64,000 nucleotides of DNA from an uncultured Chloroflexia bacterium (lineage in GTDB: Bacteria; Chloroflexota; Limnocylindria; Limnocylindrales; CSP1-4), in contig CAVYIM010000007.1 in NCBI GenBank assembly GCA_963768655.1, positions 128,001-192,000 of the forward strand. The letters are read 5' to 3'. The notes under the pieces are model-generated. The model did not search any database and was not told where the DNA came from. It saw only the letters and a program-made list of their open reading frames with translations. Positions within the stretch are counted from its first letter, which is position 1. The number at the start of each line of letters is the position of its first letter. Shown here in pieces: positions 11,659-59,900 of the stretch. A program made the translations under genes and the position numbers.

Positions 11659-12540
11659 CGACGGAGCCTTCGGCCACCGATGGCGACGTCGAACCCGCCG
11701 GCAAGCCGGTTCGGCCGCCGCTCGAGATCGAGCTGCTCACGCTCTTCCCGGCCATGCTCGAGGGACCCCTTTCCGAGAGCATTCCGGGGCGCGTTCAGGC
11801 TCGCGGCCTGGCCCAGGTCCGCATCCACGACATGCGCCATTGGGGCCTTGGCCGCCACAAGTCCGTCGACGACTACACCTACGGCGGGGGAGCGGGCATG
11901 GTCCTGCGCCCGGAGCCGGTGGCAGCTGCCCTGGACGAGCTCCGCCGGCCCGACAGCACGGCTATTCTGCTGGACCCGGGCGGCGAGGTCTTCGGGCAGG
12001 CGCGCGCCCACGACCTGGCGGAGCGCACGCACCTGGTCCTGCTCTGCCCCCGCTACGAGGGCGTCGACGAGCGAATCCGCTCCCTCGTGGACCTCGAGGT
12101 GTCGATCGGCGATTACGTGCTCTCGGGCGGCGAGATTCCCGCGCTGGTGGTCGTGGACACGATCCTGCGGCTGCTCCCAGGCGCCATCGACGCCGAAATC
12201 GACGGCCGAGGAGTCTTTCGCCGCCGGCCTGCTCGAGTACCCGCAGTACACCCGCCCGCCCGTGTTTCGCGATCTGGCCGTGCCGGCAGTCCTGACGAGC
12301 GGCCACCACGAAGCCGTCCGCAAGTGGCGCCTCAAGGAGTCGCTGCGCCGGACCTGGCGCCGCCGGCCGGATTTGCTCGAGGACAGGCCGATGACGCGCG
12401 AAGAGGCGAAGCTGCTGGCGGAGGTCAGCCACGAGGAGAGCGTCGCGGCGGCCGACGCGGCAGGAACGGCCGACGGCGCCGCGGCGCCGGGTCGCTCGGC
12501 GCCGTCTGCCCGCGAAACCGGAGAGTGGCCCGGAGAGTAG
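11655..12540 (+). CDS. trmD: tRNA (guanine37-N1)-methyltransferase TrmD, +1 frameshift at about 12195-12198 (likely sequencing error)
   Basis: [20 protein letters not shown] and [11 protein letters not shown] lie in one frame. [15 protein letters not shown] and SGHH continue in the next frame after GAAATC. Confidence 0.93.
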
Positions 12541-12601
12541 CTTCTCGCCTGCCCGGCGCAATCTGCCGCAACCCGAACCGAGCCGCGACGGCGTCGGGTT
12601 G

Positions 12602-12610
12602 TGGTATCCT
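12602..12610 (+). promoter_or_regulatory. Putative extended -10 promoter for rplS
   Basis: TGgTATCCT in the intergenic region about 120 bp upstream of rplS. Confidence 0.4.
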
Positions 12611-12732
12611 TCGCCGTCGGCCGCTCTGGCGGCCGCATTTCATGTGTCTTCATCGCAGCCGGGCTGCGGGCAACATCGGCTACTGAGCGCAGCCCCGCCG
12701 CTCGCGCAGCTTGACGAAGAGTAGGGAACGCC

Positions 12733-13083
12733 GTGAACGTGCTCGACGAGATCACCCAGGAACAGATCCGGACAGACACCCCGGAGCTCAGCCCGGGCGA
12801 CACGGTGCGCGTCGCTGCGCGGGTCGTCGAGGGTAACCGCGAGCGCATCCAGGTCTTCGAAGGGACGGTCATGCGCCTGCGCGGCGGCGGCATCCAGCGC
12901 TCGATCACCGTCCGCAGGATCGCCAGTGGTGTCGGCGTGGAGCGCACCTTCAAGGTGAACAGCCCCCGCATCGACAAGATCGAAGTCGTGCGCCACGGCC
13001 AGGCGCGCCGCGCTCAGCTGTACTTCCTGCGCAAGCGCGTGGGCAAGGCGGCTACCCTGCGCGAGCGCCGCGTCAGCAGCTAG
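12733..13083 (+). CDS. rplS: 50S ribosomal protein L19
   Basis: [19 protein letters not shown]...GVGVERTF...RRAQLYFLR. Confidence 0.98.
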
Positions 13084-13100
13084 ACCGGCTCGGGAGCCAC

Positions 13101-13949: not shown

Positions 13950-13966
13950 CGCCTGCCGGAGGAGCC

Positions 13967-14365
13967 ATGGCCGAACGAACGGACCGACAGAAGGCCGGCG
14001 ACACGGCCGAAAGCCTTGTCTGCGAACGCCTGGCGGCCCGGGGCTGGCAGATCCTGGCCCGCAACGTCCACTTCGGACGCAGCGAGCTGGACATCGTCGC
14101 CATCGACCCGGGTCCGCCGGGGAGGCTCGTCGTGGTCGAGGTCCGGTGGCGGCGCTCGAGGGAGTTCGGACTGGCGGAGGAGACCTTTGACCGTCGAAAA
14201 CAGGCCCATCTGAAGGCCGGGGTGGCCCGCATGCTGGAGGCGGGGTGTCTGCCCGACGGCATCGAGCTGCCTCGCCTGGCGCCGGCGTTGGACCTGGCGA
14301 CAGTCGAACCCGGGACCGGCGGCCTTCCTGTCGTGCGCCTCTACCGGAATGCGCTTGGGGGTTGA
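13967..14365 (+). CDS. yraN: YraN/UPF0102 family predicted endonuclease
   Basis: G..AE, ILARN, ELDIVA and VVVEVR motifs. It follows rnhB, as is common. Confidence 0.88.
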   Translation: MAERTDRQKAGDTAESLVCERLAARGWQILARNVHFGRSELDIVAIDPGPPGRLVVVEVRWRRSREFGLAEETFDRRKQAHLKAGVARMLEAGCLPDGIELPRLAPALDLATVEPGTGGLPVVRLYRNALGG

Positions 14366-14497
14366 CCGCCAGTTCTGGCGACCGACGACCGACTGATCGC
14401 GGCGTATTGGGATTGGCTGCCGCGGACCGGGTGAGCCGCCGGCCACGCAAGCAGCCGGCTGCGCATCGACACGGCCGGCTGGGGCCGGTCGCCGCTG

Positions 14498-19422: not shown

Positions 19423-20659
19423 ATGAGCAACGCGTCGATGAGCGACGCCTCCCCGATCGTGCGAGTCGCGCTGCTGGGTTCGGGCGGCTCGATCGGTCGC
19501 CAGGCCATCGACGTGCTGGGCGAGATGTCCGACGCGTTTCGGATCGTCGCTCTGGCCACCGGGTCGCAAGCGCAGTTGCTGGAAGAGCAGGCCCGCCGGT
19601 TCCGCCCGCAGATCGTGGCGCTGGCGGATGCGACTGCCGCGGCCCGTCTCGATCTCCCATCGGGCGTGGCCCGGGCCTCCGGCGCGGCCGCGCTGGAAGA
19701 GATCGTGGCGCGGCCCGACGTGGATCTGGTTCTGGTGGCCACGGGAGGCCTGGTCGCGCTGCGTTCCGTGCTGGCGGCCCTGGAGGCGGGCAAGGTGGTC
19801 GCCACGGCGAACAAGGAGACCCTCGTGGCCGGCGGGCACCTGGTCATGCCGCTGGCATGGGCCCTGGCCGATCGAAATCGTCCGCTGATGCCGTCGCCGA
19901 TATCAGGCCGGACCTCCGCCGGCCCCCTCGGCTGGCTGCGCCCTATCGACTCCGAGCATTCAGCCATCTGGCAGTGCCTGGCTGGCGAGGAGAACCGCGC
20001 CATCGCGCGATTGCTGCTCACCGCGTCCGGCGGGCCGTTCCTCGATGCCAGTGTCGCGGACCTTGCGACGGTCACCCCCGAACGGGCCCTGCGCCACCCG
20101 ACCTGGCGAATGGGCGCGAAGATCACCGTCGACTCCGCGACCCTCGCCAACAAGGGGCTCGAAATCATCGAAGCGCACTGGCTGTACGATGTGCCCCTCT
20201 CGGCCATTTCGGTCGTCATCCACCCTCAGAGCGTCGTCCATTCGGCCGTGGAGTTCGTGGACGGCTCGATCAAGGCGCAGCTCGGGACCCCGGACATGCG
20301 ACTTCCCATCCAATATGCGCTGACATACCCGGCCCGACGGTCTTCGCCGGCCGCCGCGGCGGATCTGATTGCCGCGGGTAAGCTGGAGTTCCGGGCGCCC
20401 GATGAGGAGCGCTTTCCGGCGTTGAGGATCGCCAGGGAGGCCGGGCTGGCCGGGCCTCGGGCCAGCGCCGCGCTGATTTCGGCCGACGAAGTCGCGGTCG
20501 CCCGCTTCCTGGACGGCCGCCTCGATTTCTCCGGGGATTCCGCGAGTCCTGGGGGCAGCCGTGGAGAAGTTCGGTTCCGGCAAGCCCCGCGAGCCGGGTC
20601 TCGAGGAACTCATGGCGCTCGACACGCAGGTTCGCGCATTCGCTGAGGGGGCCCGGTGA
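19423..20659 (+). CDS. dxr: 1-deoxy-D-xylulose-5-phosphate reductoisomerase, +1 frameshift at about 20524-20536
   Basis: GSGGSIG, ANKE, PIDSEH, LTASGGPF, HPTWRMG. The C-terminus IPRVLGAAVE...ELMALD...* continues in the shifted frame to TGA 20659, overlapping the rseP start. Confidence 0.93.
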
Positions 20660-37870: not shown

Positions 37871-37908
37871 TCTGGGCGTGCCCGCAAGCCCAGAAGAGTA
37901 GTGGAGCC

Positions 37909-39775: not shown

Positions 39776-41444
39776 ATGCCTGAATCACAGATACCGCTTC
39801 GAATCATCCCCCTCGGAGGCGTGGGGGAGATCGGCAAGAACATGTACGTCTTCGAGTATGGCGACGACATCGTCGTCGTCGACTGTGGACTCATGTTCCC
39901 CGATGAGGAGATGTTCGGGATCGATCTGGTGATCCCCGACGTCACCTACCTGCGCGAGAACCGAGAGAAGGTCCGCGCCTTCCTGATCACTCACGCCCAC
40001 GAGGATCACGTCGGCGGGCTGCCATACGTGCTCCCGTACTTCCCCGGCGTGCCCGTGTATGCGTCAACGCTGGCCCGCGGCCTGCTCGGCATCAAGATCA
40101 AGGAGCACAAGCTCCACAACAACCCGCTCTTGCCCCTGGATCCGGGCGACAACCTCGAGATCGGGCCGTTCCGCGTCGAGCCGTTCCGGATCAGCCACTC
40201 GAATTCCGGACGCGATGGGAATCGCCCTCCACACGCCGATCGGGACGGTCGTCACGACGGGCGACTTCAAGTTCGACCACACGCCGGTCGACGGCCGCCG
40301 GTCCGACTTTGCCATGCTTTCGCGCCTGGGCGAGGACGGCGTGGTCTGCCTGCTCTCAGATTCGACTCGGGCCGAGAGTCCCGGCTACACGCTCTCTGAG
40401 CGGACCGTCGGTGAGACCTTCCGCGAGATCATGGAGCCGCTGGACGGCCGGGTCATCGTGGCCACGTTCGCCAGCAACATCGCCCGCATCCAGCAGGTCA
40501 TCGACGCCGCCGCGACGTTCGACCGCAAGGTCGCGGTCGTGGGCCGCTCCATGGAGCAGAATTTTCGCATCGCGACTGACCTTGGGTACCTGACGTATGC
40601 CCCAGGCCAGATCGTGGGCAAGGATCAGATCGGGTCCACGGCGGCGGACAAGATCGTCATCGCCACGACCGGCGCCCAGGGGGAGCCAATGGCCGGCCTG
40701 GCCCGCATGGCCAACCGCGACCACCGCTTCGTTGAGATCCAGCCGGGCGACACCGTAATCGTCAGCGCCAGCCCGATCCCCGGCAACGAAGAGTATGTGG
40801 CTCGGACCATCGACAACCTCTTCAAGGCCGGCGCCAATGTCTACTACCACACCGTCAAGCACGCCCACGTTTCGGGCCACGCCAGCCAGGAAGAGCTGAA
40901 ACTGATGCTGGGCCTGACCAGGCCGAAGTACTTCATCCCGATTCACGGCGAATTCCGGATGCTTGTCCAGCACGGCCGCCTCGCCGTGGAGACCGGGGTG
41001 GCCCCTGAGAACGTGTTCATCATCGAGAACGGCCAGGCCATCGAGTTCTTCGCGGACGGCACCGCCCGGCGCGCCGCCCCCGTAACCTCCGGCTACGTGC
41101 TCGTGGACGGGCTGTCCGTCGGCGACGTCGGCGAAGTGGTCCTGCGCGACAGGCGGGCGCTCGCCAGCGACGGCATGTTCATCATCGTCGTGACCGTGGA
41201 TAAGCAGACCGGGAAAGTGGTGGCTCGGCCCGAGATCGTGACTCGCGGCTTCATACACGGGAACGAGCGAGACCCGCTCATCGACGGGGCGGTGGAGCAC
41301 ATCATGGCCGCGGTCGAGAGCCCGGGCGATCGGACCAGCGAGGTGGGCCTTCTCAAGAGCCAGATCAAGGACGAAGTGTCGCGGTATCTCTACGAGCAGA
41401 CGCGGCGGCGGCCGCTCGTCTTCCCGGTCGTGGTGGAGGTCTGA
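39776..41444 (+). CDS. rnj: Ribonuclease J, +1 frameshift at about 40201-40203
   Basis: PLGGVGEIGKN and THAHEDH in the first frame; (HS)IPD, TGDFKFD, SDST, ATFASN and HVSGHA in the next frame. Confidence 0.94.
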
Positions 41445-43814
<2,370 letters not shown>

Positions 43815-43818
<4 letters not shown>

Positions 43819-45665: not shown

Positions 45666-45672
45666 TTGGATC

Positions 45673-46281
45673 GTGGGGGAATATCCGCTGGCTGTCCTGG
45701 TCGAGCGATTGCAGGAGTTGTGTCTGCGGCTGGGCTTGACGGTGGCGACTGCGGAGTCCTGTACCGGTGGCCTCGTCGCCAGCGCCATTACGGATCTGAG
45801 CGGCTCGAGTGCGTATTTCCGGGGCGGTGTGGTCGCGTACTCCAACGAGGCCAAGATCGGGCTCCTGGGAGTCCCCCAGGAGGTGCTGGAGACTCATGGC
45901 GCAGTCAGTGCCCAGGCCGCGAAGGCGATGGCCGTGGGAGCGCGCGCAAGTCTGTCGGCTGATCTTGCGGTCGCCGTGACCGGTGTTGCCGGGCCCGGCG
46001 GCGGCAGCGCGTCCAAGCCTGTCGGCCTGACGTACGTCGCCGTCGCCGACGCTGCCGGCGTGGAGGTCAGGCGCCTCGCATGGGCCGGGGACCGCCTCGG
46101 CAACAAGGAGTCGAGCGCCCGAACCGCTCTGGAGATGTTGCTCCTGCGGGCGAGCGCGGGCGCGGCATCCGCCGGCTCTGGCACTGCCGAGGGCGGAGCC
46201 GAGCACTGGGCGCCCGAGCGCGAGGCACCTGAGGGCGCCGCACCCGCGAGCGGAGAGGCCGAGGCCGGGGCGGCCGGGTGA
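45673..46281 (+). CDS. pncC: CinA C-terminal domain / NMN deamidase (PncC)
   Basis: AESCTGG, GSSAYF.GG...YSN..K, GAVS, TGVAGP.G...KPVG. Confidence 0.88.
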   Translation: MGEYPLAVLVERLQELCLRLGLTVATAESCTGGLVASAITDLSGSSAYFRGGVVAYSNEAKIGLLGVPQEVLETHGAVSAQAAKAMAVGARASLSADLAVAVTGVAGPGGGSASKPVGLTYVAVADAAGVEVRRLAWAGDRLGNKESSARTALEMLLLRASAGAASAGSGTAEGGAEHWAPEREAPEGAAPASGEAEAGAAG

Positions 46282-47852
46282 GCGGCGTCAGGGGCGCGGC
46301 TTCGGTCGGTTTCGGGCTCGCTGCTGCGCGCCCGGCTCGCGCCATCCGGATCGGTGAACGGATCCATGTCGTCGGTGCGGCTGGTGCCGGAGCGAGCGCC
46401 GCGGTCATCCTGGCGGACGACCAGAAGGCTGCCGTGAGCGGCTGTGACGCCTCCGGGCACTCGCCGTATACGCCGCCGATCGAGGCCCGAGGCATTTGGC
46501 TGGCGGGCAGCCACGATCCAAGCCACGTGACGAATTGGCCCGCGCCGGAGCGGCTGGCGGTCACCAAGGCGCTGACGGCGATCGATCCCCACAACGCCGA
46601 GCTGGAGGCGGCCCGAGCGGCCGGCATCCCGATCGAGCCCTGGCAGCAGGTCGTCGCCGACGCGGCCGTGGGGCGTCGTCTCGTCGGCGTGGCCGGGACT
46701 CATGGGAAGAGCACGACCTCGGGCTGGCTCGTGCACGTGCTGGTTCAGGCGGGGCTCGATCCATCGGCGTTCGTCGGGGCTTTGCTTCCGGCGTCGATCA
46801 CTGGCGGTTTGCCCTCGACTGCCCGATCCGGAACAGGGAAGCCGTTCGTTGTCGAGGCGGACGAATACGCCGGCAACTTCGATCCATACCGGCCCGGCGT
46901 GGCCGTCCTGACGTCCGCCGAGTGGGATCACCCCGACGTGTTCGCAGACAGCGCTGCCGTCGTCGATGGCTTCGTCGACTGGCTGGCGAGCGCCGCCGGC
47001 TCTGTCGTCGATCCTGTGCTCGTCGCCAACGTTGGCGACGAGGGTGTGGTGGCGGTCGTCGAGAGGCTGCAACGTGACGGCTGGCGCGGGCGGCTGCTCT
47101 GCGTGGGCATTGAGGGGCCGGCGCACAACGAACTCCGGCCTGGCGCCCGTTCCGGTGTCAGAGGAGGGTATTCGCCGCCGGGCGGAGCCGTGGAAATGCT
47201 TCTCGGCCGGGTCACGCAGGTGGCCCCGGATGGGACGACGCTGGAGGTGGAAGGGTCGGCGCTATCTGCGCCGCTGACCGCCAGACTGCGCCTGGCGGGG
47301 CGGCACAACGCCGCCAATGCCCTTGGAGTCGTCGGCGCCGCGCTGGCTCTCGACGTAGCGCCGGATGCCATCGCTGCCGGCCTCGCGAGCTTCGATGGCG
47401 TCGGGCGACGCCTGGAGCGGAAAGGGGAGGGGAGGGGCGTCGTCGTCTATGACGACTACGGCCACCACCCGACCGCGATCCGGGAGACTCTCGCGGCCAT
47501 CCGCCAGAGAGAGCCCGGAAGGCGCATCTGGGCGGTCTACGAGCCACTCACCTACCATCGGACCGCGGCCATGCTCGAGCAATTCGCGGAAGTGCTAGCC
47601 GCCGCGGATGGCGTCGCCATTGCGGACATATGGGCGGGCCGGGACCCGGATACCACCGTCACCTCGGCGGCAGCGCTGGCCGATGCGGTCGCCCGGCGCA
47701 ACCCGCGGATTCCGGCTGCGGCCCCGGGTTCTGTCGAGGCGACGGCCGGCTGGCTGGCCGGCCAGGTTCGATCAGGCGACGCGGTCCTGGTCATGGGCGG
47801 CGGGCGGAGCTATCGCATTGCCGAGCTGCTGGTGGAGGCGCTGGGGCACTGA
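46278..47852 (+). CDS. murC: MurC/Mpl-family Mur ligase (divergent)
   Basis: GTHGKSTT, VEADEY, EWDHPD, G.HN..NA, F.GV.RR.E, DDYGHHPT, MGGG. Confidence 0.78.
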   Translation: MSGVRGAASVGFGLAAARPARAIRIGERIHVVGAAGAGASAAVILADDQKAAVSGCDASGHSPYTPPIEARGIWLAGSHDPSHVTNWPAPERLAVTKALTAIDPHNAELEAARAAGIPIEPWQQVVADAAVGRRLVGVAGTHGKSTTSGWLVHVLVQAGLDPSAFVGALLPASITGGLPSTARSGTGKPFVVEADEYAGNFDPYRPGVAVLTSAEWDHPDVFADSAAVVDGFVDWLASAAGSVVDPVLVANVGDEGVVAVVERLQRDGWRGRLLCVGIEGPAHNELRPGARSGVRGGYSPPGGAVEMLLGRVTQVAPDGTTLEVEGSALSAPLTARLRLAGRHNAANALGVVGAALALDVAPDAIAAGLASFDGVGRRLERKGEGRGVVVYDDYGHHPTAIRETLAAIRQREPGRRIWAVYEPLTYHRTAAMLEQFAEVLAAADGVAIADIWAGRDPDTTVTSAAALADAVARRNPRIPAAAPGSVEATAGWLAGQVRSGDAVLVMGGGRSYRIAELLVEALGH

Positions 47853-47999
47853 CCGGTCGACGCTCCACTCGTGACTCCGTCGCCGCGTGCCGCCCTGAGT
47901 GCGACCCACGCGGCCGGGGGTCCCCAAAGTCGTTCGTTCTGCTGCACAATCTGCGTGCCCCGGCGGCGTTAGCCCCAGAGGAACAAGTCAGGAGGCCAG

Positions 48000-48491
48000 A
48001 TGGCCGGCGAGTCATCGTTCGACGTGGTCAGCGACTTCGACGACCAGGAGATGCGCAACGCGCTGGACCAGGTGAGGCGCGAGGTTCAGCAGCGCCACGA
48101 CTTCAAGGGGGCAACATTCGAGCTGACTCAGGCCAAGACCGAGCTCGTGCTGCTTACCGATGACGAGTTCCGCGCGAAGGCGATCAAGGAGCTGATCGAA
48201 AGCAAGGCTGTTCGGCGAAACCTGTCGCTCAAGATCTTCGACTGGGGCAAGATCGAGCCCGCCGGAGGTGACAAGGTCCGCCAGCACATCACGCTGCGCC
48301 GGGGTCTGGACGAGGATCTGGCGCGGAAGTTGAGCAAGCTCGTTCGAGAGGAATTCCCGAAGGTGAAACCGCAGATCCAGGGCGACGCCTTGCGGGTCTT
48401 CGGAAAGAACAAGGACGACCTCCAGCGGGTCATCGCCCGGCTGAGGGAGCTCGATGAACCGGTGGCACTGCAATTCACGAACTACCGATGA
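48000..48491 (+). CDS. yajQ: YajQ family nucleotide/c-di-GMP-binding protein
   Basis: SFDVVS, NA.DQ..RE...R.DFKG, QIQGD..RV.GK.KDDLQ, LQFTNYR. Confidence 0.95.
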   Translation: MAGESSFDVVSDFDDQEMRNALDQVRREVQQRHDFKGATFELTQAKTELVLLTDDEFRAKAIKELIESKAVRRNLSLKIFDWGKIEPAGGDKVRQHITLRRGLDEDLARKLSKLVREEFPKVKPQIQGDALRVFGKNKDDLQRVIARLRELDEPVALQFTNYR

Positions 48492-48577
48492 GACCCACCC
48501 GGGAAGTGCTGAGGCATCGATCGAAGGCGATCGGTGCATACGGGCCGAATCCGGCGCGGTGATCTGAAGGAGAGGCA

Positions 48578-50497
48578 ATGTCGATGAGTGAAGGCCAGAG
48601 CGCCACCGTCACGGTCGGCGAGGCTATGGCCGAAGCGTTGGCTCGGGCCGGCGTGAAGATCGCCTTCACTGTCCCCGGCGAGAGTGTTCTTGGACTACTC
48701 GACCGCCTGGCTGCACACAAGATTCGGGTTGTCACGGCGCGTCACGAGGGAGCGGCGTCATTCATGGCCGAAGCAGTCGCCCAGCTGACCGGACGGCCGA
48801 CGCTCGTCCTCGCCGGGCGGGCGCCCGGAGCGGCCAACCTCATGATCGGTCTGCAGGCCGCCCAATCCGATTCGGCGCCCGTGATCGCGATCGTCGGCCA
48901 GGTGAGGCGACAGGTTCGGGGACGCGAGGCCTTCCAGGAGATGGACCTGGTCCGGACCTTCGAGCCCATCGTCAAGTGGGCGGGCGAGGCGAAGGACGCC
49001 GGCGATGTGGCCGTGATGGTTGAGAAAGCCGTCACGACCGCGACGAAGGGCCGGCCCGGGCCTGTGCTCCTATCTGTGCCGGAAGACGTGCTCGACCTGC
49101 CCGCGGAGGGCGGACAGGTAGTCGGTCTTCATCTGGAGCACCCCGCCGATCCGGATCAGGTCCTCGTCCGGAAGATCCTCCATGTCCTCCTCGGGGCGCA
49201 GCGGCCGCTCATCGTCGCCGGCGCCGGAGTTCTGAGGAGCCGCGGCACGGACGCCCTGGTCCGTTTCGCCGAAACAGTTCAGGTCCCAGTCGTGGCCTCG
49301 TGGCGTCGAGGTGACGTCTTCCCCAACGACAACGCCCTCTATCTGGGCATGACCGGTCTCGGGTCTCCGGCGAGTGTCAGGACGAGGATGGAGCAAGCGG
49401 ACGCGCTGCTCGTGCTGGGCTGCCGGATGGGTGAGATGACGACATACGGGTACGCGATTCCCGTCGGCGGGACACGCTGGGCGCAGGTCGATGTGGATCC
49501 GCGAGGGGCGGCGCTGGCCAATCGCCCGGAGATCGTGCTGGCTGCCGACGCGTCGGCGTTCCTGCGGATGACCCAGCGGGTGCTCGGGAATGCGGCACTC
49601 GACGCTGCGACTCTTGATGCTCGGCGCCTCCGGAACGTAGCCGACCGGGAGGCCTTCGAGATGGCATCGACGGTCGACGCGGAGCCGTGGGACGGGCCGG
49701 GTGTGCACCCAGGCCGGGTCGTTGCGACCCTCGGGCGCGTCCTGCCGGCCGACTCGATCGTTGCCACCGATGCCGGCGATTTCGGGACCTGGGCCGCCCG
49801 CGGATACAGGTTCCGCCGGCCCGGAACCTTCCTCGGCTCGACCTCGGGAGCGATGGGGTTCGGGCTGCCGGCAGCGATAGGGGCGACGCTGGCCCGGCCC
49901 GGCAGGCTCGGTGTGGCCCTCGCCGGTGACGGCGGTTTCGCGATGACGATGGCGGAACTGGAGACGGCGGTACGAGAGCGGGCGCGCGTCATCGCGATCG
50001 TCTTCGACAACGCCCGCTACGGGACGATCTGGCGGCACCAGGCGCTCCGTGGCGGTCCGAGTGGCCCCGTGGCCAGGCTCGGCGCCGTGGACTTCGCTGC
50101 GATCGCCGAGGCGTGCGGGGCGCTTGGGCTGTCGGTCAATTCCGATGACGAGTTCGAGCCGGCGCTGCGGCAGGCTCTGGAAGCCGGACGGCCGGCGCTT
50201 CTGCACCTGGCCATGGATGCGCACTGGACCACGCCCGACGGTATCCCTTCATCCGACGAGGCTCCGGTGACGCTCGAGACGCGAATGGAGGCGGAAGACG
50301 AGGGAGGCGGCGCCCTCGAAAGCGCGGCTGAAGAGCTTGTCGAGGCCTATGTCGAAGTTGCCGTGGAGGCGGCGCTCGAAGCCACCCTCGAGGAGGAGCT
50401 CGAAGTCGAGCTCATCGAGGCGGCCGAAGGACTCGCCGACGAACTCGCCGCGGCCCGTCCGATGGACGCGCCGCAGGAGCTCCCTCCGGCAGAGTAG
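48578..50497 (+). CDS. Thiamine-diphosphate-dependent enzyme (acetolactate synthase large subunit-like) with acidic tail
   Basis: VPGES, RHEG.A.FMA, AFQE, GRPGPV, GAMGFGLPAA and the GDGGF...N ThDP motif. Confidence 0.88.
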   Translation: MSMSEGQSATVTVGEAMAEALARAGVKIAFTVPGESVLGLLDRLAAHKIRVVTARHEGAASFMAEAVAQLTGRPTLVLAGRAPGAANLMIGLQAAQSDSAPVIAIVGQVRRQVRGREAFQEMDLVRTFEPIVKWAGEAKDAGDVAVMVEKAVTTATKGRPGPVLLSVPEDVLDLPAEGGQVVGLHLEHPADPDQVLVRKILHVLLGAQRPLIVAGAGVLRSRGTDALVRFAETVQVPVVASWRRGDVFPNDNALYLGMTGLGSPASVRTRMEQADALLVLGCRMGEMTTYGYAIPVGGTRWAQVDVDPRGAALANRPEIVLAADASAFLRMTQRVLGNAALDAATLDARRLRNVADREAFEMASTVDAEPWDGPGVHPGRVVATLGRVLPADSIVATDAGDFGTWAARGYRFRRPGTFLGSTSGAMGFGLPAAIGATLARPGRLGVALAGDGGFAMTMAELETAVRERARVIAIVFDNARYGTIWRHQALRGGPSGPVARLGAVDFAAIAEACGALGLSVNSDDEFEPALRQALEAGRPALLHLAMDAHWTTPDGIPSSDEAPVTLETRMEAEDEGGGALESAAEELVEAYVEVAVEAALEATLEEELEVELIEAAEGLADELAAARPMDAPQELPPAE

Positions 50498-50521
50498 GGG
50501 ACCGCGGGGAGCCGGTCCGCT

Positions 50522-52006
50522 CTAGCGGACCGGCTGCGGCAGCCTGAGCTCGAGGACCAGCTGAGTGCGGCGCTCGTGGAGACGGCGCTCGAGGCCGACC
50601 GGGTAGACGTGCGGGTTGAGCAGGCGGCGGATGGCGGGATGCAGAGCGCCTATCTGGCTGCGGGCTCTGGCGCGGATCTCGTCGAGGGTCGGGGAGGCGG
50701 CAACGCGACGGCCGGCGCGCAGTGCTGGAAGGACGAGCTCGGAGGCGGCCCACGCGTCGTCGATGGAGCGCATGTGCAGGGCGTCCGCCGGGTCGACGAT
50801 CACGCCTCCCGGCCCGTCAGGTGGCATGGCCTCGTCGTAGATCATGTCGGCCCGGAGACGGCCGGTCGTATCGGTGAAGCGGCGGACTCCGAGGATGCCG
50901 GGAGTGGAGATCTTGGCGGTCTGCTCCGAGAGCTTGACCGGGAAGCGCCACGAACCGGCGTAGTCGCGGACGGCTGTCAGCTTGTAGACGGCGCCGAGAG
51001 CGGGCTGGTCGAAGGCCGTGTCCAGCTTCGTGCCCACGCCCCAGACGTCGATTCGGGCACCCTGCTCGCGCAGCGACTCGATGAGGTGCTCATCGAGATC
51101 GTTGGAGGCGACGATCTTCGTGTCCTGGAACCCGGCCGCGTCGAGCATGCGACGGGCCTCGATGGATAGATACGCCAGATCGCCCGAGTCGAGCCGGATG
51201 GCATCGAGGGTCCGGCCGCGAGCGCGCAACCTCTGGCCCGTTTGAATGGCCCGAGCGACCCCGGCGAGCGAATCGTACGTGTCGACCAGGAGCGTGATGT
51301 TGTCCGGCTGGGCGTCGGCGTAAGCGTCGAAGGCCGCCTGCTCGTCGCCGAAGACCTGGACCCAGGAATGGGCGTGAGTGCCGCGAACGGGGATTCCATG
51401 GAGCCGCCCCGCCAGCACGTTGGACGTGGCCGACACGCCGCCGATGTACGCGGCGCGGGCTGCGGAAACCGCGCCGTCGGGACCCTGGGCGCGCCGCAGC
51501 CCGAACTCCAGGATGTCTCCACCACCGGCTGCCTCCACTACACGGGCCGCCTTTGTGGCGATCAAGGTCTGGAATCCAATGATCGTGAGAAGCATGCTCT
51601 CGACCAGCTGGGCCTGTAGTAGCGGCCCGCTCACCCGCACCAGCGGCTCGTTGGCGAAGACGACCGTGCCTTCCGGAATGGCGTCAACGTCGCAGCTGAA
51701 ACGCAAGGAGCCGAGGAGCTCCAGAAACTCCCCTGAGAAGAGGGGCTGCCCGGTGACCCCGCGCATGTCCCGCAGGTGGTCGATGTCCTCGGGCGAGAAG
51801 CGCAGGTGCTCGAGGATCTCGAGGGCATCGTCGAGGCCGGCCGCAACGGCATATCCGCCGCCGAACGGCAAGCTGCGGAAGCTCAGCGTGAAGACCGCCT
51901 GCCGTTCGGCCAGACCCGTCGCGAGATACCCGGACCCCATCGTCAGCTCGTAGAGATCGGTCAGAGTGGCAAGGCTGGGTCTATACAGGTCTCGGATGGC
52001 GGACAT
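50522..52006 (-). CDS. pncB: Nicotinate phosphoribosyltransferase
   Basis: TDLYELTM, EFGLRRAQG, GTHAHSW, LVDTYD, RLDSGD, ASNDLDE, GVGT. ATG at 52006. Confidence 0.95.
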   Translation of the reverse strand: MSAIRDLYRPSLATLTDLYELTMGSGYLATGLAERQAVFTLSFRSLPFGGGYAVAAGLDDALEILEHLRFSPEDIDHLRDMRGVTGQPLFSGEFLELLGSLRFSCDVDAIPEGTVVFANEPLVRVSGPLLQAQLVESMLLTIIGFQTLIATKAARVVEAAGGGDILEFGLRRAQGPDGAVSAARAAYIGGVSATSNVLAGRLHGIPVRGTHAHSWVQVFGDEQAAFDAYADAQPDNITLLVDTYDSLAGVARAIQTGQRLRARGRTLDAIRLDSGDLAYLSIEARRMLDAAGFQDTKIVASNDLDEHLIESLREQGARIDVWGVGTKLDTAFDQPALGAVYKLTAVRDYAGSWRFPVKLSEQTAKISTPGILGVRRFTDTTGRLRADMIYDEAMPPDGPGGVIVDPADALHMRSIDDAWAASELVLPALRAGRRVAASPTLDEIRARARSQIGALHPAIRRLLNPHVYPVGLERRLHERRTQLVLELRLPQPVR

Positions 52007-52234
52007 CTTCGCTCGCTTGCAGGCTTGTGTGCTTTGCCCCAACGTTACCCGGTTTGGAGCCATCTCGAGCATGCAGGCCGGTCGGGCGGAACGCACCGAT
52101 GGCGTAGCCTCGGCGCGACCCGGGCCGAGTCGCGCGTAGAATCGTGGCGTCGGCCACCCGCGCTGGCTCGTCCGCGCGATCGGCAGCGGAGCGCTCGGGC
52201 GGTTGCGTGGACCACAGGATCTGGATGGGGACTC

Positions 52235-52615
52235 GTGAAGCCGTTCGATCCGTCAACCGATCCGTCTGGCGATCCGGACCAGACGCAGGACGGGCCTGCG
52301 ACCAACCCGGCCGGCGTCTGCCACGGCGCCGGGCTGATCGTCGTGCACGGCAATCCGGCCTTCAAGCGCATCTTCGGGGTGGGGTCCGTGGGCCTCCCGG
52401 CACGCGAGGGGATGCTCGGGCTGTCCCGCACCGGGTTCACTCTGATGGACGCCGTCATTCGAGAAGGGCGCCCGCTGGCTCGCTGGGTTCGCCTGGCGGG
52501 TGAGACGTGGCGCATGACCGCCGCCCCGCGGATCGACCCTGGCAGCGGCGAGGTCTACGGCGTGGCTTTCCACCTCCGGCCTCGCGATCCCGAGACGCCG
52601 CTGACCGCCGACTGA
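52235..52615 (+). CDS. Small stand-alone PAS-like domain protein
   Basis: N.AF..IFG...VG.P..E, then a helix and beta strands ending ...P..D..G.V.GV. Divergent from pncB. Confidence 0.5.
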   Translation: MKPFDPSTDPSGDPDQTQDGPATNPAGVCHGAGLIVVHGNPAFKRIFGVGSVGLPAREGMLGLSRTGFTLMDAVIREGRPLARWVRLAGETWRMTAAPRIDPGSGEVYGVAFHLRPRDPETPLTAD

Positions 52616-53008
52616 GCGGGCTGGCGCCGGGCGTGCGGGCGGACGCTGCTCTTCGTCGCTACTCTTCGTCATTGAGCCGGCCGGCATCGCTCACGTCCGA
52701 GGTCGAGATAGACTGGCGACAAAGAGGAAGAGTGCTGTCGCATCCAGCGGTGGTGGGCAGGTCGACCACCGGGGGCCTGGCTTCGATGGCGCCGTCGATG
52801 ATTCGAAGGAGACCAGCGGCATGTCCGAGGAAGCCGTAATCATTCGGAGGGCCCCATCCTTGTTCGCCTGTTCCTTCCTGGTCGGAGGGACCGGACGTGG
52901 AGAGCGCGTCCCGCTCTGCAACGAAGCCGCGGCGGATGGGCTTTCCGGTGTGACAGTCGGCTTCACCTGGTGCCGCAGATCCGGGACGGGCAAGCGAAGT
53001 TGCGCGCG

Positions 53009-53905
53009 ATGAACGTCAGAGACGCAGGCGGCAGGTGGATCGAGATTGCCGAGATCGGCGCTGCCGGTCTGCTGATCGTTTCCTTCCTGCTGCCCTGGTT
53101 TCAGGCTCGCAATTCCGACGCGGCGACGTCCTCGTGGCTGTACCTCCTCCTCAATTCCGGTTGGATGAGGGCCCTCGAGGCCGATCTCATCACGTTCGGA
53201 TCCCTCGTCGCGCTTCTGGCGGCTATCGGAGGCCTTGTGAAGCTGCGAGACCGATTAGCGTCTGTGGTCGCAGCGATCGCCGTCGGTGGGTTCGCGGCGT
53301 CGCTGGTCGGGGTGGCCTGGACTCTCACGGAGTCGGGGAACGCGGCGTTCGTCTGGGGCCCATGGGGCGACGACATCGACCGGGGCCCCGGTCTGCTGCT
53401 GTTCCTGGCAGCCGCCCTGGCTGGCACCGCACTTGCCGTTGCCAGAGTCGTCCTGCCCGCATCCGGAGCGGAAGACTCTCCTTCAGGCCCATCGCTAAGC
53501 GCCCCGATCACGGCCGGCGCGCGGCCGCCCTTGCTGCGGTATGGGAGCGTTCGGCCGACGACCGTGCCCGCAGGCGAACCCGTGGCAGGCGTGGCGGGCC
53601 GTATCACAGTGTTCGAATCAGGCCGGTCTTCGACGCTCAGTGTGGGCGAAGGCGAGCGTGTGATCGTCGGGCGAGATCTGGGTGCCGATATTCGCGTCTC
53701 GGATGCGAAAGTCAGTCGGCGGCACGCCATGATCGAGTGGAGCGCCGGCAGCTGGATCGTGCGCGATCTTGCGGCCAAGGACCCGACCCGTCTACTCGAT
53801 GCCTCGGGCGCAGGTCAGATTCTGGCCGGGCAGATTCGGATCCCCTCAGGGCAGCTCGTCATCGGCGAGGTGCTCATCACGCTCCACGCGACAGGGGAAC
53901 CATGA
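53009..53905 (+). CDS. Membrane protein with C-terminal FHA domain
   Basis: Four hydrophobic segments (SFLLPWF...), then VIVGR...D..VSRRHA...W.V.DL. Confidence 0.75.
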   Translation: MNVRDAGGRWIEIAEIGAAGLLIVSFLLPWFQARNSDAATSSWLYLLLNSGWMRALEADLITFGSLVALLAAIGGLVKLRDRLASVVAAIAVGGFAASLVGVAWTLTESGNAAFVWGPWGDDIDRGPGLLLFLAAALAGTALAVARVVLPASGAEDSPSGPSLSAPITAGARPPLLRYGSVRPTTVPAGEPVAGVAGRITVFESGRSSTLSVGEGERVIVGRDLGADIRVSDAKVSRRHAMIEWSAGSWIVRDLAAKDPTRLLDASGAGQILAGQIRIPSGQLVIGEVLITLHATGEP

Positions 53906-53940
53906 GCTCGCCCGAGGCGAGGTAGCCCTCTGCGCGCCGC

Positions 53941-55380
53941 CTACGCCTGTGCGGCCGTCTTGTCCGCGAAACTGGCCGCGAACTCGACGAAGCGGTACAC
54001 GTCGGCGAAGGTCGTGACCAGGCCCAGAGACACGCGAACGGCGCCCGTGCTCTTGTCGTCGATGCAGCGCCGAAATTCATCGAGCGCGAGCCGATCGGCC
54101 ACGCCGACGAAGCACGACGAGAGCTCGTCCGCGGACAGGCCCAGAGCAACTTCGCCGCCGCCGGGGTTGCAGAAGCAGCCGGTGCGGAGCGAGATCCCCG
54201 CCCGATTTGCGCGCTCCTCGACGATCCGGTGGTCGATGAAGTGACCACCGGCGTCGTACACGTTCAGCGCGATCGTCCCGCCGCGGTCGGTGGCGTCGAC
54301 AGGGCCGTAGACGCGCACGATGGGCTTCCCATCGCTGTGGCAGAGCGTCGCCAGCGCGCCCAGCAGCCATTCGGTCAGGGACTGGACCCGCGTATGGATG
54401 AGGTCCAGGCCCAGCCGGTCGATGTGACGCAGGCCGATCTCCACGGCCGGCAGCGAGAGGTAGTCGAGCGTCCCATCTTCGAACGCGGCCGGCCCTTCGG
54501 CCATGAAGTATCGGTCGCCCTGAACCGACGCGACGGTGATCGTTCCCCCCGCGAACCAGGGGCGGTGGAGCTTCCGAAGCGCCGCCTTGCGGGCGATCAG
54601 GACGCCGACGCCGGTCGGGTAACCGAAGATCTTGTAGAACGAGATCGGTACGAAGTCGGGGTGCCAGCGGCTCAGATCCAACCTGTTCGTCGGCACGAAG
54701 GCCGCCGCGTCGAGCAGGACGTCCCAGCCTCGCTCCTGCGCTCGGGCGATCCATTCGAGCGAGTGCTGGACGCCCGAGAAGTTCGACTGGGCCGGGTAGG
54801 CGAGCAGATTCGAAGCCCCGGCAGCGGCCTCGCCGAGGCAGGCGGCCAGGCGTCCCTCGTCGATCCGCATGTCCGGCGGAATGACCGGCGCGTAGGTCAC
54901 GCGCGCGCCCCTCGCGCGGGCGAACTCGCGAATGCCGTTGACCGAGTTATGGTTATCGAAGGTCAGCAGATAGTGCCCGCCCGGCGAGAAGGGGTAGGCC
55001 TCGCCGACCAGGCGCAGAGCGCCGCTGGCGTTCTGCGTGAAGCACGCCACGTATTCGTCGGGTGAAGCATTGAAGTGCTCCAGCACGGATGCGCGGGCGC
55101 GCTCCACCCAGTGCGACATGGCGAGCGACGCCGGGTTGGTCGAGTGCGGGTTGCCGAACACGCCGCTCATCAGCAGCTCCGCATGGGCTCGAACCTGCGA
55201 GTCGGCGTAGACGCCTCCCGCGGTGTAGTCGAGGAAGACGTGGCCGTCGCGGTCCAGGCGCGCGTAGTCGGTCGCCCGCAGCTCATCGAGTGAGTGAGTC
55301 GCGTCGAACTCGGGATGTGCCTGCCGGAAGCTGGTCTGGGCATCGGCGAACGGGACAAGCTGACCGGGCTGGAATGCCAT
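53941..55380 (-). CDS. Class-V PLP enzyme resembling the NifS-like domain of molybdenum cofactor sulfurase
   Basis: LDYTAGG, GNPHS, DNHNSV.GIR, QSNFSG, LDAAA, SFYKIFGYPTG, RTGCFCNPG. Confidence 0.85.
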   Translation of the reverse strand: MAFQPGQLVPFADAQTSFRQAHPEFDATHSLDELRATDYARLDRDGHVFLDYTAGGVYADSQVRAHAELLMSGVFGNPHSTNPASLAMSHWVERARASVLEHFNASPDEYVACFTQNASGALRLVGEAYPFSPGGHYLLTFDNHNSVNGIREFARARGARVTYAPVIPPDMRIDEGRLAACLGEAAAGASNLLAYPAQSNFSGVQHSLEWIARAQERGWDVLLDAAAFVPTNRLDLSRWHPDFVPISFYKIFGYPTGVGVLIARKAALRKLHRPWFAGGTITVASVQGDRYFMAEGPAAFEDGTLDYLSLPAVEIGLRHIDRLGLDLIHTRVQSLTEWLLGALATLCHSDGKPIVRVYGPVDATDRGGTIALNVYDAGGHFIDHRIVEERANRAGISLRTGCFCNPGGGEVALGLSADELSSCFVGVADRLALDEFRRCIDDKSTGAVRVSLGLVTTFADVYRFVEFAASFADKTAAQA

Positions 55381-55547
55381 GCGGTTCTCCGGAACGTGTG
55401 GACGTGAGCTTGCGGCTGGCGGCAGCGGCAGTCAAACGGTGCGTCGGGCGCACGTGGCACCGCGAATTGGCGACCGGTGGGCCGTGCCGGCGACTGCGAT
55501 GCCGGCTCCGCGCCGGCGTCCAGGCCGGAACTGGCTTCGAGGCGGAG

Positions 55548-57224
55548 CTAGGAGTGCCCCGGGTCGACGAGTGCCACGTAGACGGCCGAGCGGCCCGGGT
55601 ACGCGGCGGCCAGGCGTCCGTCGCCGTAGGCATAGCGCACGATGCCGTCAGGCCCGAAATCGGCTCGCTCACGCAATCCGACCCCGTTGGAGTCGGCGGC
55701 CACATCAGCCGGATACCAGCGCGCCGTCGTGATCCGAGCCGGTGCCATGAATGTCTCGCCGGCGTCGTAGGAGACGGAGTAGTAGGTGCCGACGGTCGCG
55801 CGGAGGCTGGCGCCCTTCGGCACGTCCGTCAGCCCGTGGAAGCCGACGAAGACCGTGCCATCCCGGACAGCGAGCGTCGGCTTGAAGGCGGACTGCGGCA
55901 GCCCGCCAATCTCGGGCAGGGCCGGGAGCGTCCGCCATTCCCAATCGGTGCCGTCGTCGCTGTAGCCGACCTCGATGGTGCCGTGGGCACCGCCGGCGCC
56001 CGCCGCGGCCGTGTAGTTGGAAACGGCGAGCAGTATGCGTCCGCTGGACTGGTCGATGTCGAAGCCCATGTCCCACTTGGGATCGGGGCGCAGGGCGTCC
56101 GTCGTCCCCGGGGCCGGGACACCGTTCACGGTGTAGGTGTTGCGGGCAAGCGTAATCGCCCAGACTGCTGGTTCTGCTGTCAATCTTTTGGCGATGCGGT
56201 CGTAGTGGAGGTGGGCAACAGCGAAGCCGACCCGCCCGACGTTGTCGAGCCCGCCCGAAGCGAAGGGTTCGCGGTCGTTCCACCGGCGCATGTCTTCTTC
56301 GTAGAAGGCAACGTAGGCAGATCCGTCGGGCGCTGTTCGCACCCGATAGTCGATCCTCCAGGCGGCCGGGAATCCGTTCAGGCCCACCCGCGCGACCTGC
56401 GCGATCTGCCAGCTACGGCCGCCGTCTGCCGATGCCAGGACGGCCAGGCCCGGCCCGGCTTGGGCATCCGCCTGCCAGTTGTAGGCAACGTAGACCGTAC
56501 CGAAATTGGGGCTGGCGGCGTTGCAGTCAACCGTGATGTCCGGATAGCCACCGATCCAGGGCGGTGTGCGTCGCTCCACATGCAGCGGCGCCCAGGTCTT
56601 TCCAAAGTCGTCGCTGTAGGACACGCTCACCGAATGCGCGCCGTAATTGCAGTTGGGTACGGTGGTGTCCGCCCACCAGAGACGGGACGACCCGGCAGTG
56701 GGCCCAGGTCCCCAGGCTACGACTCCGTGATAGTTGGGCCCACGCCCCGTCCCCGTCCAGGGGCGCCCGGGGGCGTTCTGCCACGTCCGCCCTCCGTCAT
56801 GTGAGATGCGGATTCCGGTGTCGAGACCGCAGGCGGAGCTTGCCGTCAGGCGCTGATAGACGAGCGCGACCAGATCGGGGTCGAATGGACTGACGGCGAC
56901 GGTCGGCTCCGTCACGGAATCTGACGGGAAGCTAGTGCCCACCGACGAAACTGCGTCTACGTCTGCCAGCACGCGCGGCTTCGGGGCCTGCGTCTGAGTC
57001 GGCAGCGCCGACGGCAACGGAGAACTCGTCTGCAGAGGCGGCGGCGGTTCGGTAGAAAGCGTCGTGGTGGCCGTGGCCCCGGGCTCAGCCGTGGTCTGCG
57101 CGAGCGGCGCCGGCTGTGAGGCGCGGGTCGCCTCGGCCAGGGATCCCGGGTACATGAACAGGACGCCGGCCGCTCCGATGGTGACGACCAGTACCCCGAC
57201 GATTCGTTTCGCCAGACGCCTCAT
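55548..57224 (-). CDS. Exported Asp-box (BNR) beta-propeller, sialidase-like
   Basis: Signal or anchor segment, Pro/Thr linker, and Asp-boxes SHDGGRTW, SDDFGKTW, SADGGRSW, SDDGTDW, SYDAGETF. Confidence 0.78.
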   Translation of the reverse strand: MRRLAKRIVGVLVVTIGAAGVLFMYPGSLAEATRASQPAPLAQTTAEPGATATTTLSTEPPPPLQTSSPLPSALPTQTQAPKPRVLADVDAVSSVGTSFPSDSVTEPTVAVSPFDPDLVALVYQRLTASSACGLDTGIRISHDGGRTWQNAPGRPWTGTGRGPNYHGVVAWGPGPTAGSSRLWWADTTVPNCNYGAHSVSVSYSDDFGKTWAPLHVERRTPPWIGGYPDITVDCNAASPNFGTVYVAYNWQADAQAGPGLAVLASADGGRSWQIAQVARVGLNGFPAAWRIDYRVRTAPDGSAYVAFYEEDMRRWNDREPFASGGLDNVGRVGFAVAHLHYDRIAKRLTAEPAVWAITLARNTYTVNGVPAPGTTDALRPDPKWDMGFDIDQSSGRILLAVSNYTAAAGAGGAHGTIEVGYSDDGTDWEWRTLPALPEIGGLPQSAFKPTLAVRDGTVFVGFHGLTDVPKGASLRATVGTYYSVSYDAGETFMAPARITTARWYPADVAADSNGVGLRERADFGPDGIVRYAYGDGRLAAAYPGRSAVYVALVDPGHS

Positions 57225-57496
57225 CTCGCCGGCCCTCGTGCGGACCGCGTCCCTGCGGGACGGCCGCGGGACGAGCATAGCGCCCCGCGCTTGCCTGTAT
57301 TCGCCGACGTTCGCGTGCGTTACAGGCCTGATCTATGGGCTAGACGTACCGCCCCCGGCCGTTGTGCCGGCGGCGGGGTAGGGGACCAAGCCCGGCGCGC
57401 CCGCCTCGGCCGCCCGGCTCTCGGCTCTCGGCTCCATCTTCACCCCCGGCGTGCCCCTGGCTCCGGGCAGTCCCACTCCAACCCCGGCTGCCCGCC

Positions 57497-59900
57497 CTAC
57501 GTCGCCCGGTTTTCGATCGTGCTCGGGGTCAAGTAGCGCCTGCGATCCGTAATCTCCAGGGGCGTGCCCGTCAGCTCAAGGTCGGCCGTCAGCTTCAGGT
57601 CGCCTGACGAACTCCCCGCCCAGATCCGGACGTGACCCGGCTCGATCACCTGTCGGAACGCTCGATCGAGCAAGCCGAGCTGCTCGCTGGCGAGCCGGAA
57701 GGCGACCGTGCATGCGTCGCCGGGACCCAGCCTGACTCGCTTGAAGCCGCGCAGCTCCTCGATCGGCCTCGTCACGCTCGCCTCCAGGTCGTGAACATAG
57801 AGCTGCACGACCTCGTCGCCTGAACGTTCGCCGACGTTGCGGATGTCGACCCGAACCGTCGTCTCTCCGGCCAGGGTAGGAATGCAGGCTGGGTCGAGCC
57901 GCAGATTCGAGAGCTCGAACCGGGTGTAGGACCGACCGAACCCGAACGGCCAGAGTGGCGTGGCCGGCCCGTCCACGTAGTCGCCGTGCCAGTGGGACAT
58001 GCCACCAGACGCTTTGTGGCGGTAGCAGACCGGCACCTGGCCGACGTGGCGGGGCACGGTGAAGGGAAGCTTGCCGCCTGGATTCTGGTCGCCGAAGAGG
58101 GCACCGACGATGGCTTCCGCGCCCTCGTCACCCGGAGCCCACGCCAGCAGGATGGCCCGGCAGCTTCGGGCCGCCGATTTCGAGCGCCAGCGGTCGACCG
58201 CTCATGACGACCAGCACGACTGGCGTACCGGTCGCGGCGACCGCGTCCAGCAACTCCTGCTGGCGGCCCGGCAGGCCGATGTCGAGCCGGTCGCGCGATT
58301 CGCCGGTCGTGCACGGCATCGAGAAGCCGGATCGTTCGCCCAGGACAAGGACGGCGACTTCGGCACACCGGGCGAGCTCCACGGCCGCCTCGATCTGCGC
58401 CGGCGTGCCGTCGGTCAGGCCACAGCCCTTCTCACAACGGACGTCGGCACCTGGCAATCGATCCCGCAGTGCGTCGAAGACCGTGCGCCGGCTCGCCAGC
58501 TCATCGGTCAGGAGGTTCTCGCCCCGTTCTATGTACTGCCGCCCGAGTGGTTCATCGGCCGCCTCCAGGAGAATCTCGAGTGTCGCCACGTAGCTGTAGT
58601 CGCCGAGCAGCTCGCGGCTGCTGTCGGCCAGGGGACCGATGACTGCGACCGACCGGACGCCGGCCGGCAGCGGCAACAAGTCGCGATTCTCGACGAGCAC
58701 AAGCGAGCGGCCGGCGAGTTCGCGACCCAGCCGACGCTCGTCCTCCGTCGGCCGGAGAAACGCCGAGGACGCCTGCTCATCTACATAGGGATCCTCGAAC
58801 AGCCCGAGTCGGAACTTGGTCGACAGCGTTCGAGCCACTGCTCGATCCAGCAGCGACTCGGGCACGGCCCCGCCGTCCAGCCGCGCGGCCAGAGGCTCAG
58901 CGTATGCCGCGGGCGCCGGGGTCTCGACGTCGACCCCGGCGCGAAGGGCGAGTTCGGCTGCGACGCCAAGGTCCGCCGTCATCCGGTGCTGGGTGACCAG
59001 TTGCTCGATGCCCTCGAAGTCGGCTACGACCGCGCCATCGAAGCCCCATTCGTTGCGGAGGATGCGCGACAGCAGTTCCTCGGACGCGACGCACGGGACG
59101 CCGTCGAGGTCGGTATAGGCGTGCATCACGCTCGCCATGTCCGCCTCCCGCACGGCGGCCTCGAAGGGCAGGAGGAACTCCTCGCGGATCTCTCGCGGCC
59201 CGAGGTGAGCCGGAGCCTGGTTGAGTCCGCCTTCGGGGACCCCATGACCGACCATGTGCTTGCCTGTGGCGACCACCCCGTCTCTCAGATCGCCTCGATC
59301 GACTCCCTGGAGGCCTCGCACGTAGGCACATCCCATCGCCGAGGCGAGATAGGGGTCTTCGCCGAAGGTCTCCTCGATCCGGCCCCAACGCGGGTCGCGA
59401 GCCAGGTCGAGGACCGGCGCCAGTGCCTGCCGCAGCCCGAGTGCCCTCATGCGGCGGCGAATCGAATCGGCGATGGACTGGAGCAGCTCCGGGTCCCACG
59501 CGGCGGCCGCGCCGATGGACTGCTGGAAGCAGGGCCCCGAACGGGCCATCAGGCCGTGAAGCGACTCCTCGTGCAGGATGGCGGGAATGCCCAGGCGCGT
59601 CTCTTCGACCAGGAACCTCTGGATCGCGTTGCCGGCTCGCGCTACGTCGCGGGCGTCCAGGGTTGATGCGCCGGCCAGGCGGGTGATCTGGCCGACTCCG
59701 TACTGGAGCCGCGTGCGGGCGGCGGGCCCGGCGAGTTGGGCGCCATGGAGAACGTCTGCCGCCCAAACCGACACGACCTGCGCCAGCTTTTCCCGACGGG
59801 TCATTCGGCCCAGGAGATCAGCGGTACGGACCTCGATCGGCAGATCGGGATCGCGATACGGCGTGTTCGCCAGTTGTCCGCCGGGAGCGACAGTGCTCAC
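57497..59900 (-). CDS. GH3 beta-glucosidase/beta-xylosidase with fibronectin-III tail, frameshift at about 58176-58180
   Basis: RLGIP...EE.LHG, RDPRWGRIEETFGEDP, KH, VADF nucleophile region, GES.DR. After the shift come NPGGKLP.T.P, PFGFG.SYT and EVVQLY. Confidence 0.9.

Follow-up and report, generated by a model that had tools for sequence, protein, structure and literature searches.

Single-base frameshifts at and beside GAWTC sites in a Chloroflexota assembly are probable consensus errors in five intact genes

In the window, the whole stretch of 64,000 nucleotides analysed here (G000:C7:128001-192000), five genes (trmD, dxr, rnj, ftsK and a GH3 glycoside hydrolase gene) are each interrupted by one surplus base, and three-frame translation places the downstream frame at the upstream frame + 1 in every case. 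As each gene goes on one frame further, there is one base too many in the assembly at every break. Four of the five breaks (trmD, rnj, ftsK and GH3) fall within one of the three 6-mers GAATTC, GAAATC and GATTTC, and the fifth, in dxr, lies in TCCGGGG directly 5' of a GATTC. The window holds 103 intact GAWTC sites (GAATC/GATTC) and 28 sites of the three 6-mers, and a rough estimate from these counts puts the chance of four out of five breaks falling on the 6-mers at about 1e-6. The frameshifts are almost certainly consensus errors and the genes intact, since relatives lack the extra base, the same 6-mers pile up at frame switches across the genome, and sister genomes run as controls show no such pile-up. 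A base modification at GAWTC or GANTC is considered the cause with a probability of about 0.6, N6-methylation of the A being the inferred step. The first-pass annotation of this DNA had read the breaks as five single-base insertions at GAATC/GATTC in intact genes, caused by a modification of partial penetrance. The assembly errors in intact genes and their link to GAWTC are borne out by the relatives, the Pfam matches and the genome-wide enrichment; all five breaks are +1 and four lie inside the motif, while the dxr insertion adjoins its GATTC rather than lying inside it.

The assembly (G000; 3.37 Mb, 68.5% G+C, estimated completeness 88.6%) consists of nine contigs, and so few and long contigs suggest a long-read metagenome assembly. 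Once the breaks had been located by translation, the halves of each gene were matched to Pfam profiles, and the window was compared with the syntenic DNA of two relatives of the same genus, G001 and G006, by searching the open frames of the relatives against it. The Pfam matches of the halves are contiguous across the breaks. In trmD (plus strand), the N-terminal part (11655..12197) covers positions 2-135 of the 195 in PF01746 (E 2e-36), and the C-terminal part (12199..12540), one frame further, covers positions 141-195. The break is a GAAATC (12195..12200) that equals GAATC with a surplus A; the switch maps to 12195-12197 against both relatives, of which G006 reads G-AATC and G001 G-AGTC at this place, so that the extra base is absent in two of two. 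The rnj gene (RNase J, plus strand) is broken at the HSIPD motif, where GAATTC (40201..40206, junction 40201-40203) stands for GATTC with a surplus A, and all seven relatives compared read CACTCG-ATCCC (H-S-I-P), lacking the extra A. Its N-terminal metallo-beta-lactamase part (39776..40201) matches PF00753 and PF12706, and the frame +1 part (40203..41444) carries the beta-CASP, RMMBL and C-terminal domains (PF22505, PF07521, PF17770) with 92-98% identity to the genus relatives. In ftsK (plus strand), the N-terminal part (41445..43103), which includes the first motor-domain half, matches PF17854 and positions 15-136 of 221 in PF01580, while the remaining motor domain and the gamma domain (43108..43818, frame +1) match positions 168-221 of PF01580 and PF09397. 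The break is again a GAAATC equal to GAATC plus a surplus A (43101..43106, junction 43093-43118); G001 and G006 have one base fewer between AAC-GA and CG, where they read GAGAC and stay in frame.

The break in dxr (plus strand) differs in its position relative to the motif. The main part of the gene (19423..20535) matches PF02670, PF08436 and positions 1-81 of the 115 in PF13288 (DXPR_C), and the last 41 codons (20534..20656, frame +1) are 83% and 61% identical to the Dxr C-termini of G006 and G001, respectively, this 41-residue tail having no Pfam match. The junction (20533-20535) falls within TCCGGGG followed by ATTC (20530..20540). Both G006 and G001 lack the extra base and keep the TTC (Phe) codon of the GATTTC unchanged, which puts the surplus base, a C or G, within TCCGGGG (20530-20536), immediately 5' of GATTC and outside it. 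The GH3 gene (minus strand) is located outside the syntenic blocks of G001 and G006. Its N-terminal part (58179..59900) matches PF00933 and positions 1-126 of 200 in PF01915, its C-terminal part (57497..58177, frame +1) positions 132-200 of PF01915 and PF14310, and the break is a GATTTC (58176..58181; GAAATC on the coding strand) within a switch interval of 58131-58202. Across the syntenic part of the window (1-57 kb), no frameshift other than those in trmD, dxr, rnj and ftsK was found by homology. The remaining frame switches of the window (459-496, 7217-7223, 27734-27746, 37891-37894, 54071-54106 and 63651-63660) proved on inspection to be gene junctions, intergenic indels or shadow frames. 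The change is private to the assembly in that it is absent from the orthologous DNA at rnj, trmD, dxr and ftsK, and nine further GAWTC events elsewhere in the genome are confirmed in the same manner against G001.

Reads from an independent source bear on GH3. The public run X1, which contains 0.06 of the sampled words, yields short contigs on window positions 39800-58600 (18.8 kb), of which 15 out of 55 are at least 99% alike, and over these 18.8 kb a single indel is listed, the omission of one letter at 58178, within the GATTTC of GH3 (one contig, depth 2.1). This contig without the extra base is a direct but weak hint that the insertion belongs to the assembly.

In order to relate the breaks in the window to the rest of the genome, a codon log-odds table was trained on long frames of G000 with high G+C at third codon positions, and the coding frame was tracked along all contigs by a seven-state Viterbi pass. 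Switches were retained if they stayed on the same strand, had at least 150 nucleotides of coding signal on either side and had no stop of the old frame nearby. The resulting list, which is noisy, holds 186 candidate switches, 108 of the insertion type and 78 of the deletion type. All 4- to 6-mers within 12 nucleotides of the switches were then ranked, none being chosen beforehand. At insertion-type switches GAATTC tops the ranking (14 observed against 0.23 expected, p 4e-21), followed by words overlapping it, and GAAATC/GATTTC is likewise in excess (8 against 0.44, p 2e-8). The same ranking gives no comparable excess at the 78 deletion-type switches. One of the three 6-mers lies within 25 nucleotides of 29 of the 108 insertion-type switches, as against three of the 78 of the deletion type; these 29 sites (17 GAATTC, 7 GAAATC and 5 GATTTC) occur on both strands and in all codon phases. 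Judged by codon usage, the coding signal carries on into the shifted frame, with 150 nucleotides or more of it on either side of the breaks. The indel enrichment at GAWTC on which the first-pass annotation had staked its reading is thus present genome-wide, with GAATTC and GAAATC/GATTTC first at insertion-type switches.

Sites were also classified strictly by their coding context, a procedure in which about three quarters of the sites are 'unclear' and are left out of the counts. Among clearly coding sites the insertion fraction is 13/174 for GAAATC/GATTTC and 8/95 for GAATTC, compared to 0/68, 0/60, 1/145 and 3/140 for the control 6-mers GATATC, CAAATC/GATTTG, GAAATG/CATTTC and GAATTG/CAATTC, respectively; both ends of the motif are required. 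GAWTC occurs 3,776 times in the assembly, and the three 6-mers together 1,095 times. An insertion-type switch is found at 31 of the 773 6-mers in coding context, and the stricter classifier gives about 8%; from these two rates follow some 30-90 events, or about 1-2% of the true GAWTC sites. The partial penetrance that had been proposed is seen at this genome-wide rate and likewise in the window, where four to five events stand against the 103 intact sites. The sites affected are not a random sample with respect to their flanks, as 21 of 278 sites with TC 5' of the motif on either strand are hit, against 10 of 495 without it (odds ratio 4.0, p 4e-4). Two further comparisons were set aside. A depletion of GAWTC in the genome is not seen (3,776 sites against about 3,070 expected from a rough composition estimate) and is uninformative, and the uneven spread over contigs, with no event on C6 and one on C9 where about 2.5 are expected on each, is not significant.

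Three other assemblies of the same genus were run through the same pipeline as controls. In 1.16 Mb of G001 (contig C8; 1,336 GAWTC sites), 58 insertion-type and 40 deletion-type switches were found, with one of each type near a 6-mer. The 200 kb taken from G008 (230 GAWTC sites) gave 60 insertion-type and 5 deletion-type switches, one near a 6-mer, and the 200 kb from G003 (226 GAWTC sites) gave 24 and 9, two near a 6-mer. As the controls lack the excess, the method itself does not put switches at these words, and the GAWTC link is a property of the G000 assembly. The insertion-type switches that abound in the G008 and G003 segments (G008:C17:270001-470000 and G003:C3:120001-320000) follow no fixed motif, and such insertion-rich sequences are consistent with the low completeness of the two assemblies (69% and 68%, respectively).

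The share of all breaks that GAWTC can account for was assessed by homology. All 1.16 Mb of G001:C8 were compared, as frames, with G000 by tblastn in fast mode, covering about 713 kb of G000; this mode misses weaker pairs, and trmD and dxr are absent from its list. Frame tracking confirms 19 of the 49 frame-switch clusters found in this way (16 insertion-type and 3 deletion-type). Seven of the 16 confirmed insertion breaks are at the three 6-mers and two at GGAATCC, whereas the other seven lie elsewhere, so GAWTC accounts for about half of the confirmed breaks and not for all. Three of these seven are in runs of four G, two more share the word CTCGAATGGC, and two are of neither kind. The GGAATCC breaks agree with what is seen among the 79 insertion-type candidates that have no 6-mer nearby, where GAATC/GATTC leads all 5-mers (8 observed, 2.1 expected, p 0.0012) and where GAATCC (5 against 0.63) and GGAATCC (3 against 0.19) are in excess. 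This excess indicates that the surplus base can also sit at the G or C that borders a motif left intact, as it does at dxr. The runs of four G at confirmed breaks (C4:418846, C4:816612 and C5:162629), and the one at 20533-20536 of the window, may represent a second error class that is independent of the motif, although GGGG is very common at 68% G+C. The two confirmed breaks with CTCGAATGGC (G000:C4:729907 and G000:C4:756440), neither of which has a GAWTC, may share a related error context, TCGA followed by A or T.

The width of the motif was examined in the same material. Near insertion-type switches, GASTC (GAGTC/GACTC) shows no excess (5 observed, 3.6 expected, p 0.30), and the 6-mers derived from GAGTC and GACTC have an insertion fraction at background. 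A GASTC excess at deletion-type switches (9 against 3.4, p 0.007) was rejected, as at least six of the nine are ordinary gene junctions, at which GGAG-like ribosome-binding sequence makes GAGTC, and three are ambiguous. The error footprint is accordingly restricted to W-centred sites, a statement that counts errors, so that S-centred sites may be modified free of error. The TC flank also suggested that the true motif could be TCGA, modified by an enzyme of the TaqI type, and TCGA is indeed in excess at insertion-type switches (39 against 19.9). However, the TC-flanked 6-mer events are by themselves about as numerous as this excess, and no gene with PF07669 or PF12950, as in TaqI-type enzymes, was found in the 88.6%-complete assembly.

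Base modification at GAWTC or GANTC would explain the errors in the following way. If the A of the motif is N6-methylated on both strands, the sequencing signal would be disturbed at each copy, reads from both strands would miscount the bases there, and the error would outlive the consensus. The long-contig, probably long-read, metagenome consensus would then write one base too many at or beside the palindrome. Most often the doubled base is an A or T within the motif (GAATC/GATTC to GAAATC, GATTTC or GAATTC), less often a G or C on its border (GGAATCC, dxr); roughly 1-2% of the sites are hit, those preceded by TC more frequently. GAWTC is a 5-bp palindrome, as is typical for Type II methylation targets. 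For three draft genomes of Chloroflexi, N6-methyladenine (m6A) at GANTC has been measured (Hiraoka et al. 2019, PMC6329791), and SAR11 and Rhizobiales have CcrM homologues that are specific for GAWTC and block TfiI (Hiraoka et al. 2022, PMC8919816). The motif is thus a real methylation target, occurs in the same phylum and has a known W-only variant (PMC6329791, PMC8919816). The Hiraoka motifs rest on single-molecule real-time (SMRT) kinetics and enzyme assays, in contrast to the motif of G000, which is inferred from the places of errors and for which no gene reaches the CcrM equivalog threshold. In two other studies, errors in nanopore assemblies gather at methylated motifs including GANTC, at some occurrences only, and methylation-aware models reduce them (PMC12392509, PMC12710330).

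The errors in G000 resemble the methylation errors described for Oxford Nanopore data (PMC11610573, PMC12392509, PMC12710330) in affecting short, often palindromic motifs and a subset of their occurrences. The published errors fall mostly in coding sequence and are removed by libraries made with the polymerase chain reaction or by methylation-aware models. They are mainly R/Y substitutions, unlike the single-base insertions reported here, whose motif is known from the error places alone. Methylation-linked consensus errors are thus a class of artefact already published, and the present result correctly identifies an artefact of a familiar kind; it is of use for annotation hygiene and would add to biology only if the methylation were confirmed.

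Several observations weigh against a modification of GAWTC as the cause. Seven of the 16 homology-checked insertion breaks lie away from the motif, and the one run found, X1, contains 0.06 of the sampled words. Lohde et al. 2024 (PMC11610573) describe substitution ambiguities, and the words 'insertion' and 'indel' are absent from that paper; in the literature searched, no insertion-type errors at methylated motifs in exactly the present form were found. To these are added the results on the methyltransferase genes. G000 carries seven PF01555 loci (two of them ParB fusions and some broken), one Dam-family gene and one split hsdM, yet the best score against the CcrM equivalog model (NF050803) is 54 bits at a cut-off of 830. 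Candidate methyltransferases therefore exist, but a specificity for GAWTC or GANTC is not readable from their sequences. The search for an enzyme elsewhere in the genome that the first-pass annotation had suggested thus returned candidates and no CcrM equivalog, and its motif, given there as GAWTC or GANTC, is supported by the W-centred footprint and not by the S-centred sites or by an equivalog.

The candidate conserved across the genus is a 292-codon PF01555 frame (C3:491460-492335), found with 85-94% identity in 11 of the 12 relatives searched within the genus, among which the match in G007 extends only to query residue 165. No high-identity copy was found in G009 (best match 48%) or in eight genomes of the sister family (one weak match of 30%). 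Its closest solved structure is M.RsrI (E 4e-30), ahead of CcrM (6e-16). M.RsrI is a GAATTC enzyme. This proximity counts against a GAWTC specificity, as does the presence of the enzyme in G001, G003 and G008, in which no GAWTC excess is seen (1/58, 2/24 and 1/60, respectively), although the platforms may differ. It is doubtful that the error pattern faithfully reflects a W-restricted GAWTC N6-adenine methylome of the genus, made by this genus-conserved and apparently solitary beta-class enzyme, related to M.RsrI and CcrM. If it were so, it would be a case of CcrM-like housekeeping methylation outside the Alphaproteobacteria that is readable from assembly errors alone. Other methyltransferase genes were noted besides this one. 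The PF01555 gene at G000:C5:195214-196213 is itself split at a GAATTC event (C5:195344), and the type I hsdM at G000:C5:255165-256125 is split at C5:255632, between PF02384 positions 2-171 and 171-311, with no GAWTC nearby. Two closely similar beta-class genes (G000:C7:66485-67852 and G000:C8:10411-11370) are possible sources of strain-specific methylation; the one on C7 has an N-terminal ParB-like domain, a fusion also seen in mobile elements.

The strongest competitor, a tentative explanation with perhaps half the standing of base modification, is a motif-linked technical artefact without any modified base, namely a bias of the basecaller, consensus or polishing step for GAATC/GATTC k-mers, which would survive the consensus because the palindrome puts it on both strands. 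All the evidence for an artefact, from relatives, enrichment and homology, fits this explanation equally; the dependence on the TC flank resembles a k-mer effect, no methyltransferase of matching specificity has been assigned, and other long-contig assemblies of the genus are insertion-biased too (60 against 5 in G008, 24 against 9 in G003). A bias of this kind would, however, be expected also in G001, with its 1,336 GAWTC sites, and in G008 if the platform were the same, and there a single insertion-type switch each (1/58 and 1/60) is near a 6-mer. It is also general knowledge that basecallers are trained on unmodified copies of common 5-mers. Base modification is preferred over such a bias as the better-fitting, putative cause of the errors.

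That the insertions are real, either through a mutational hotspot at GAWTC or in decaying genes, is very improbable. The deposited assembly does carry them, and its completeness is only 88.6%. But trmD, dxr, rnj and ftsK belong to the core gene set, and their joint loss is, on general knowledge, unlikely; at least 29 further genes are hit likewise, the coding signal does not fade in the shifted frame to either side of the breaks, and the extra base is missing from the relatives and, at GH3, from one independent contig. Programmed recoding by ribosomal +1 frameshifting or transcriptional slippage, which would suit breaks that recur at one short word and are always +1, can practically be dismissed, as the word is not kept in the orthologues (GATCC in rnj, GAGAC in ftsK, and GAGTC in trmD of G001), all of which are in frame, as runs of two to three A/T are, from general knowledge, far shorter than known slippage tracts, and as the breaks occur on either strand and in every codon phase.

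As consensus errors, the breaks have consequences for the use of the assembly. The five genes of the window and at least 29 others should be annotated as intact and not as pseudogenes, the estimated completeness of 88.6% is probably an underestimate, and at least 17 of the 374 GAATTC sites of the assembly are spurious. When frame tracking is combined with k-mer ranking, a systematic error motif, and hence a candidate for a methylated motif, can be recovered from the finished assembly alone.

Rfam and tRNA scans of the window gave no match. An intergenic segment at 27610-27700, upstream of nusA (start 27763), is near-identical in G000, G006 and G001 while its flanks diverge; belonging to no Rfam family and containing no tRNA, it is a candidate for a conserved leader or promoter element.

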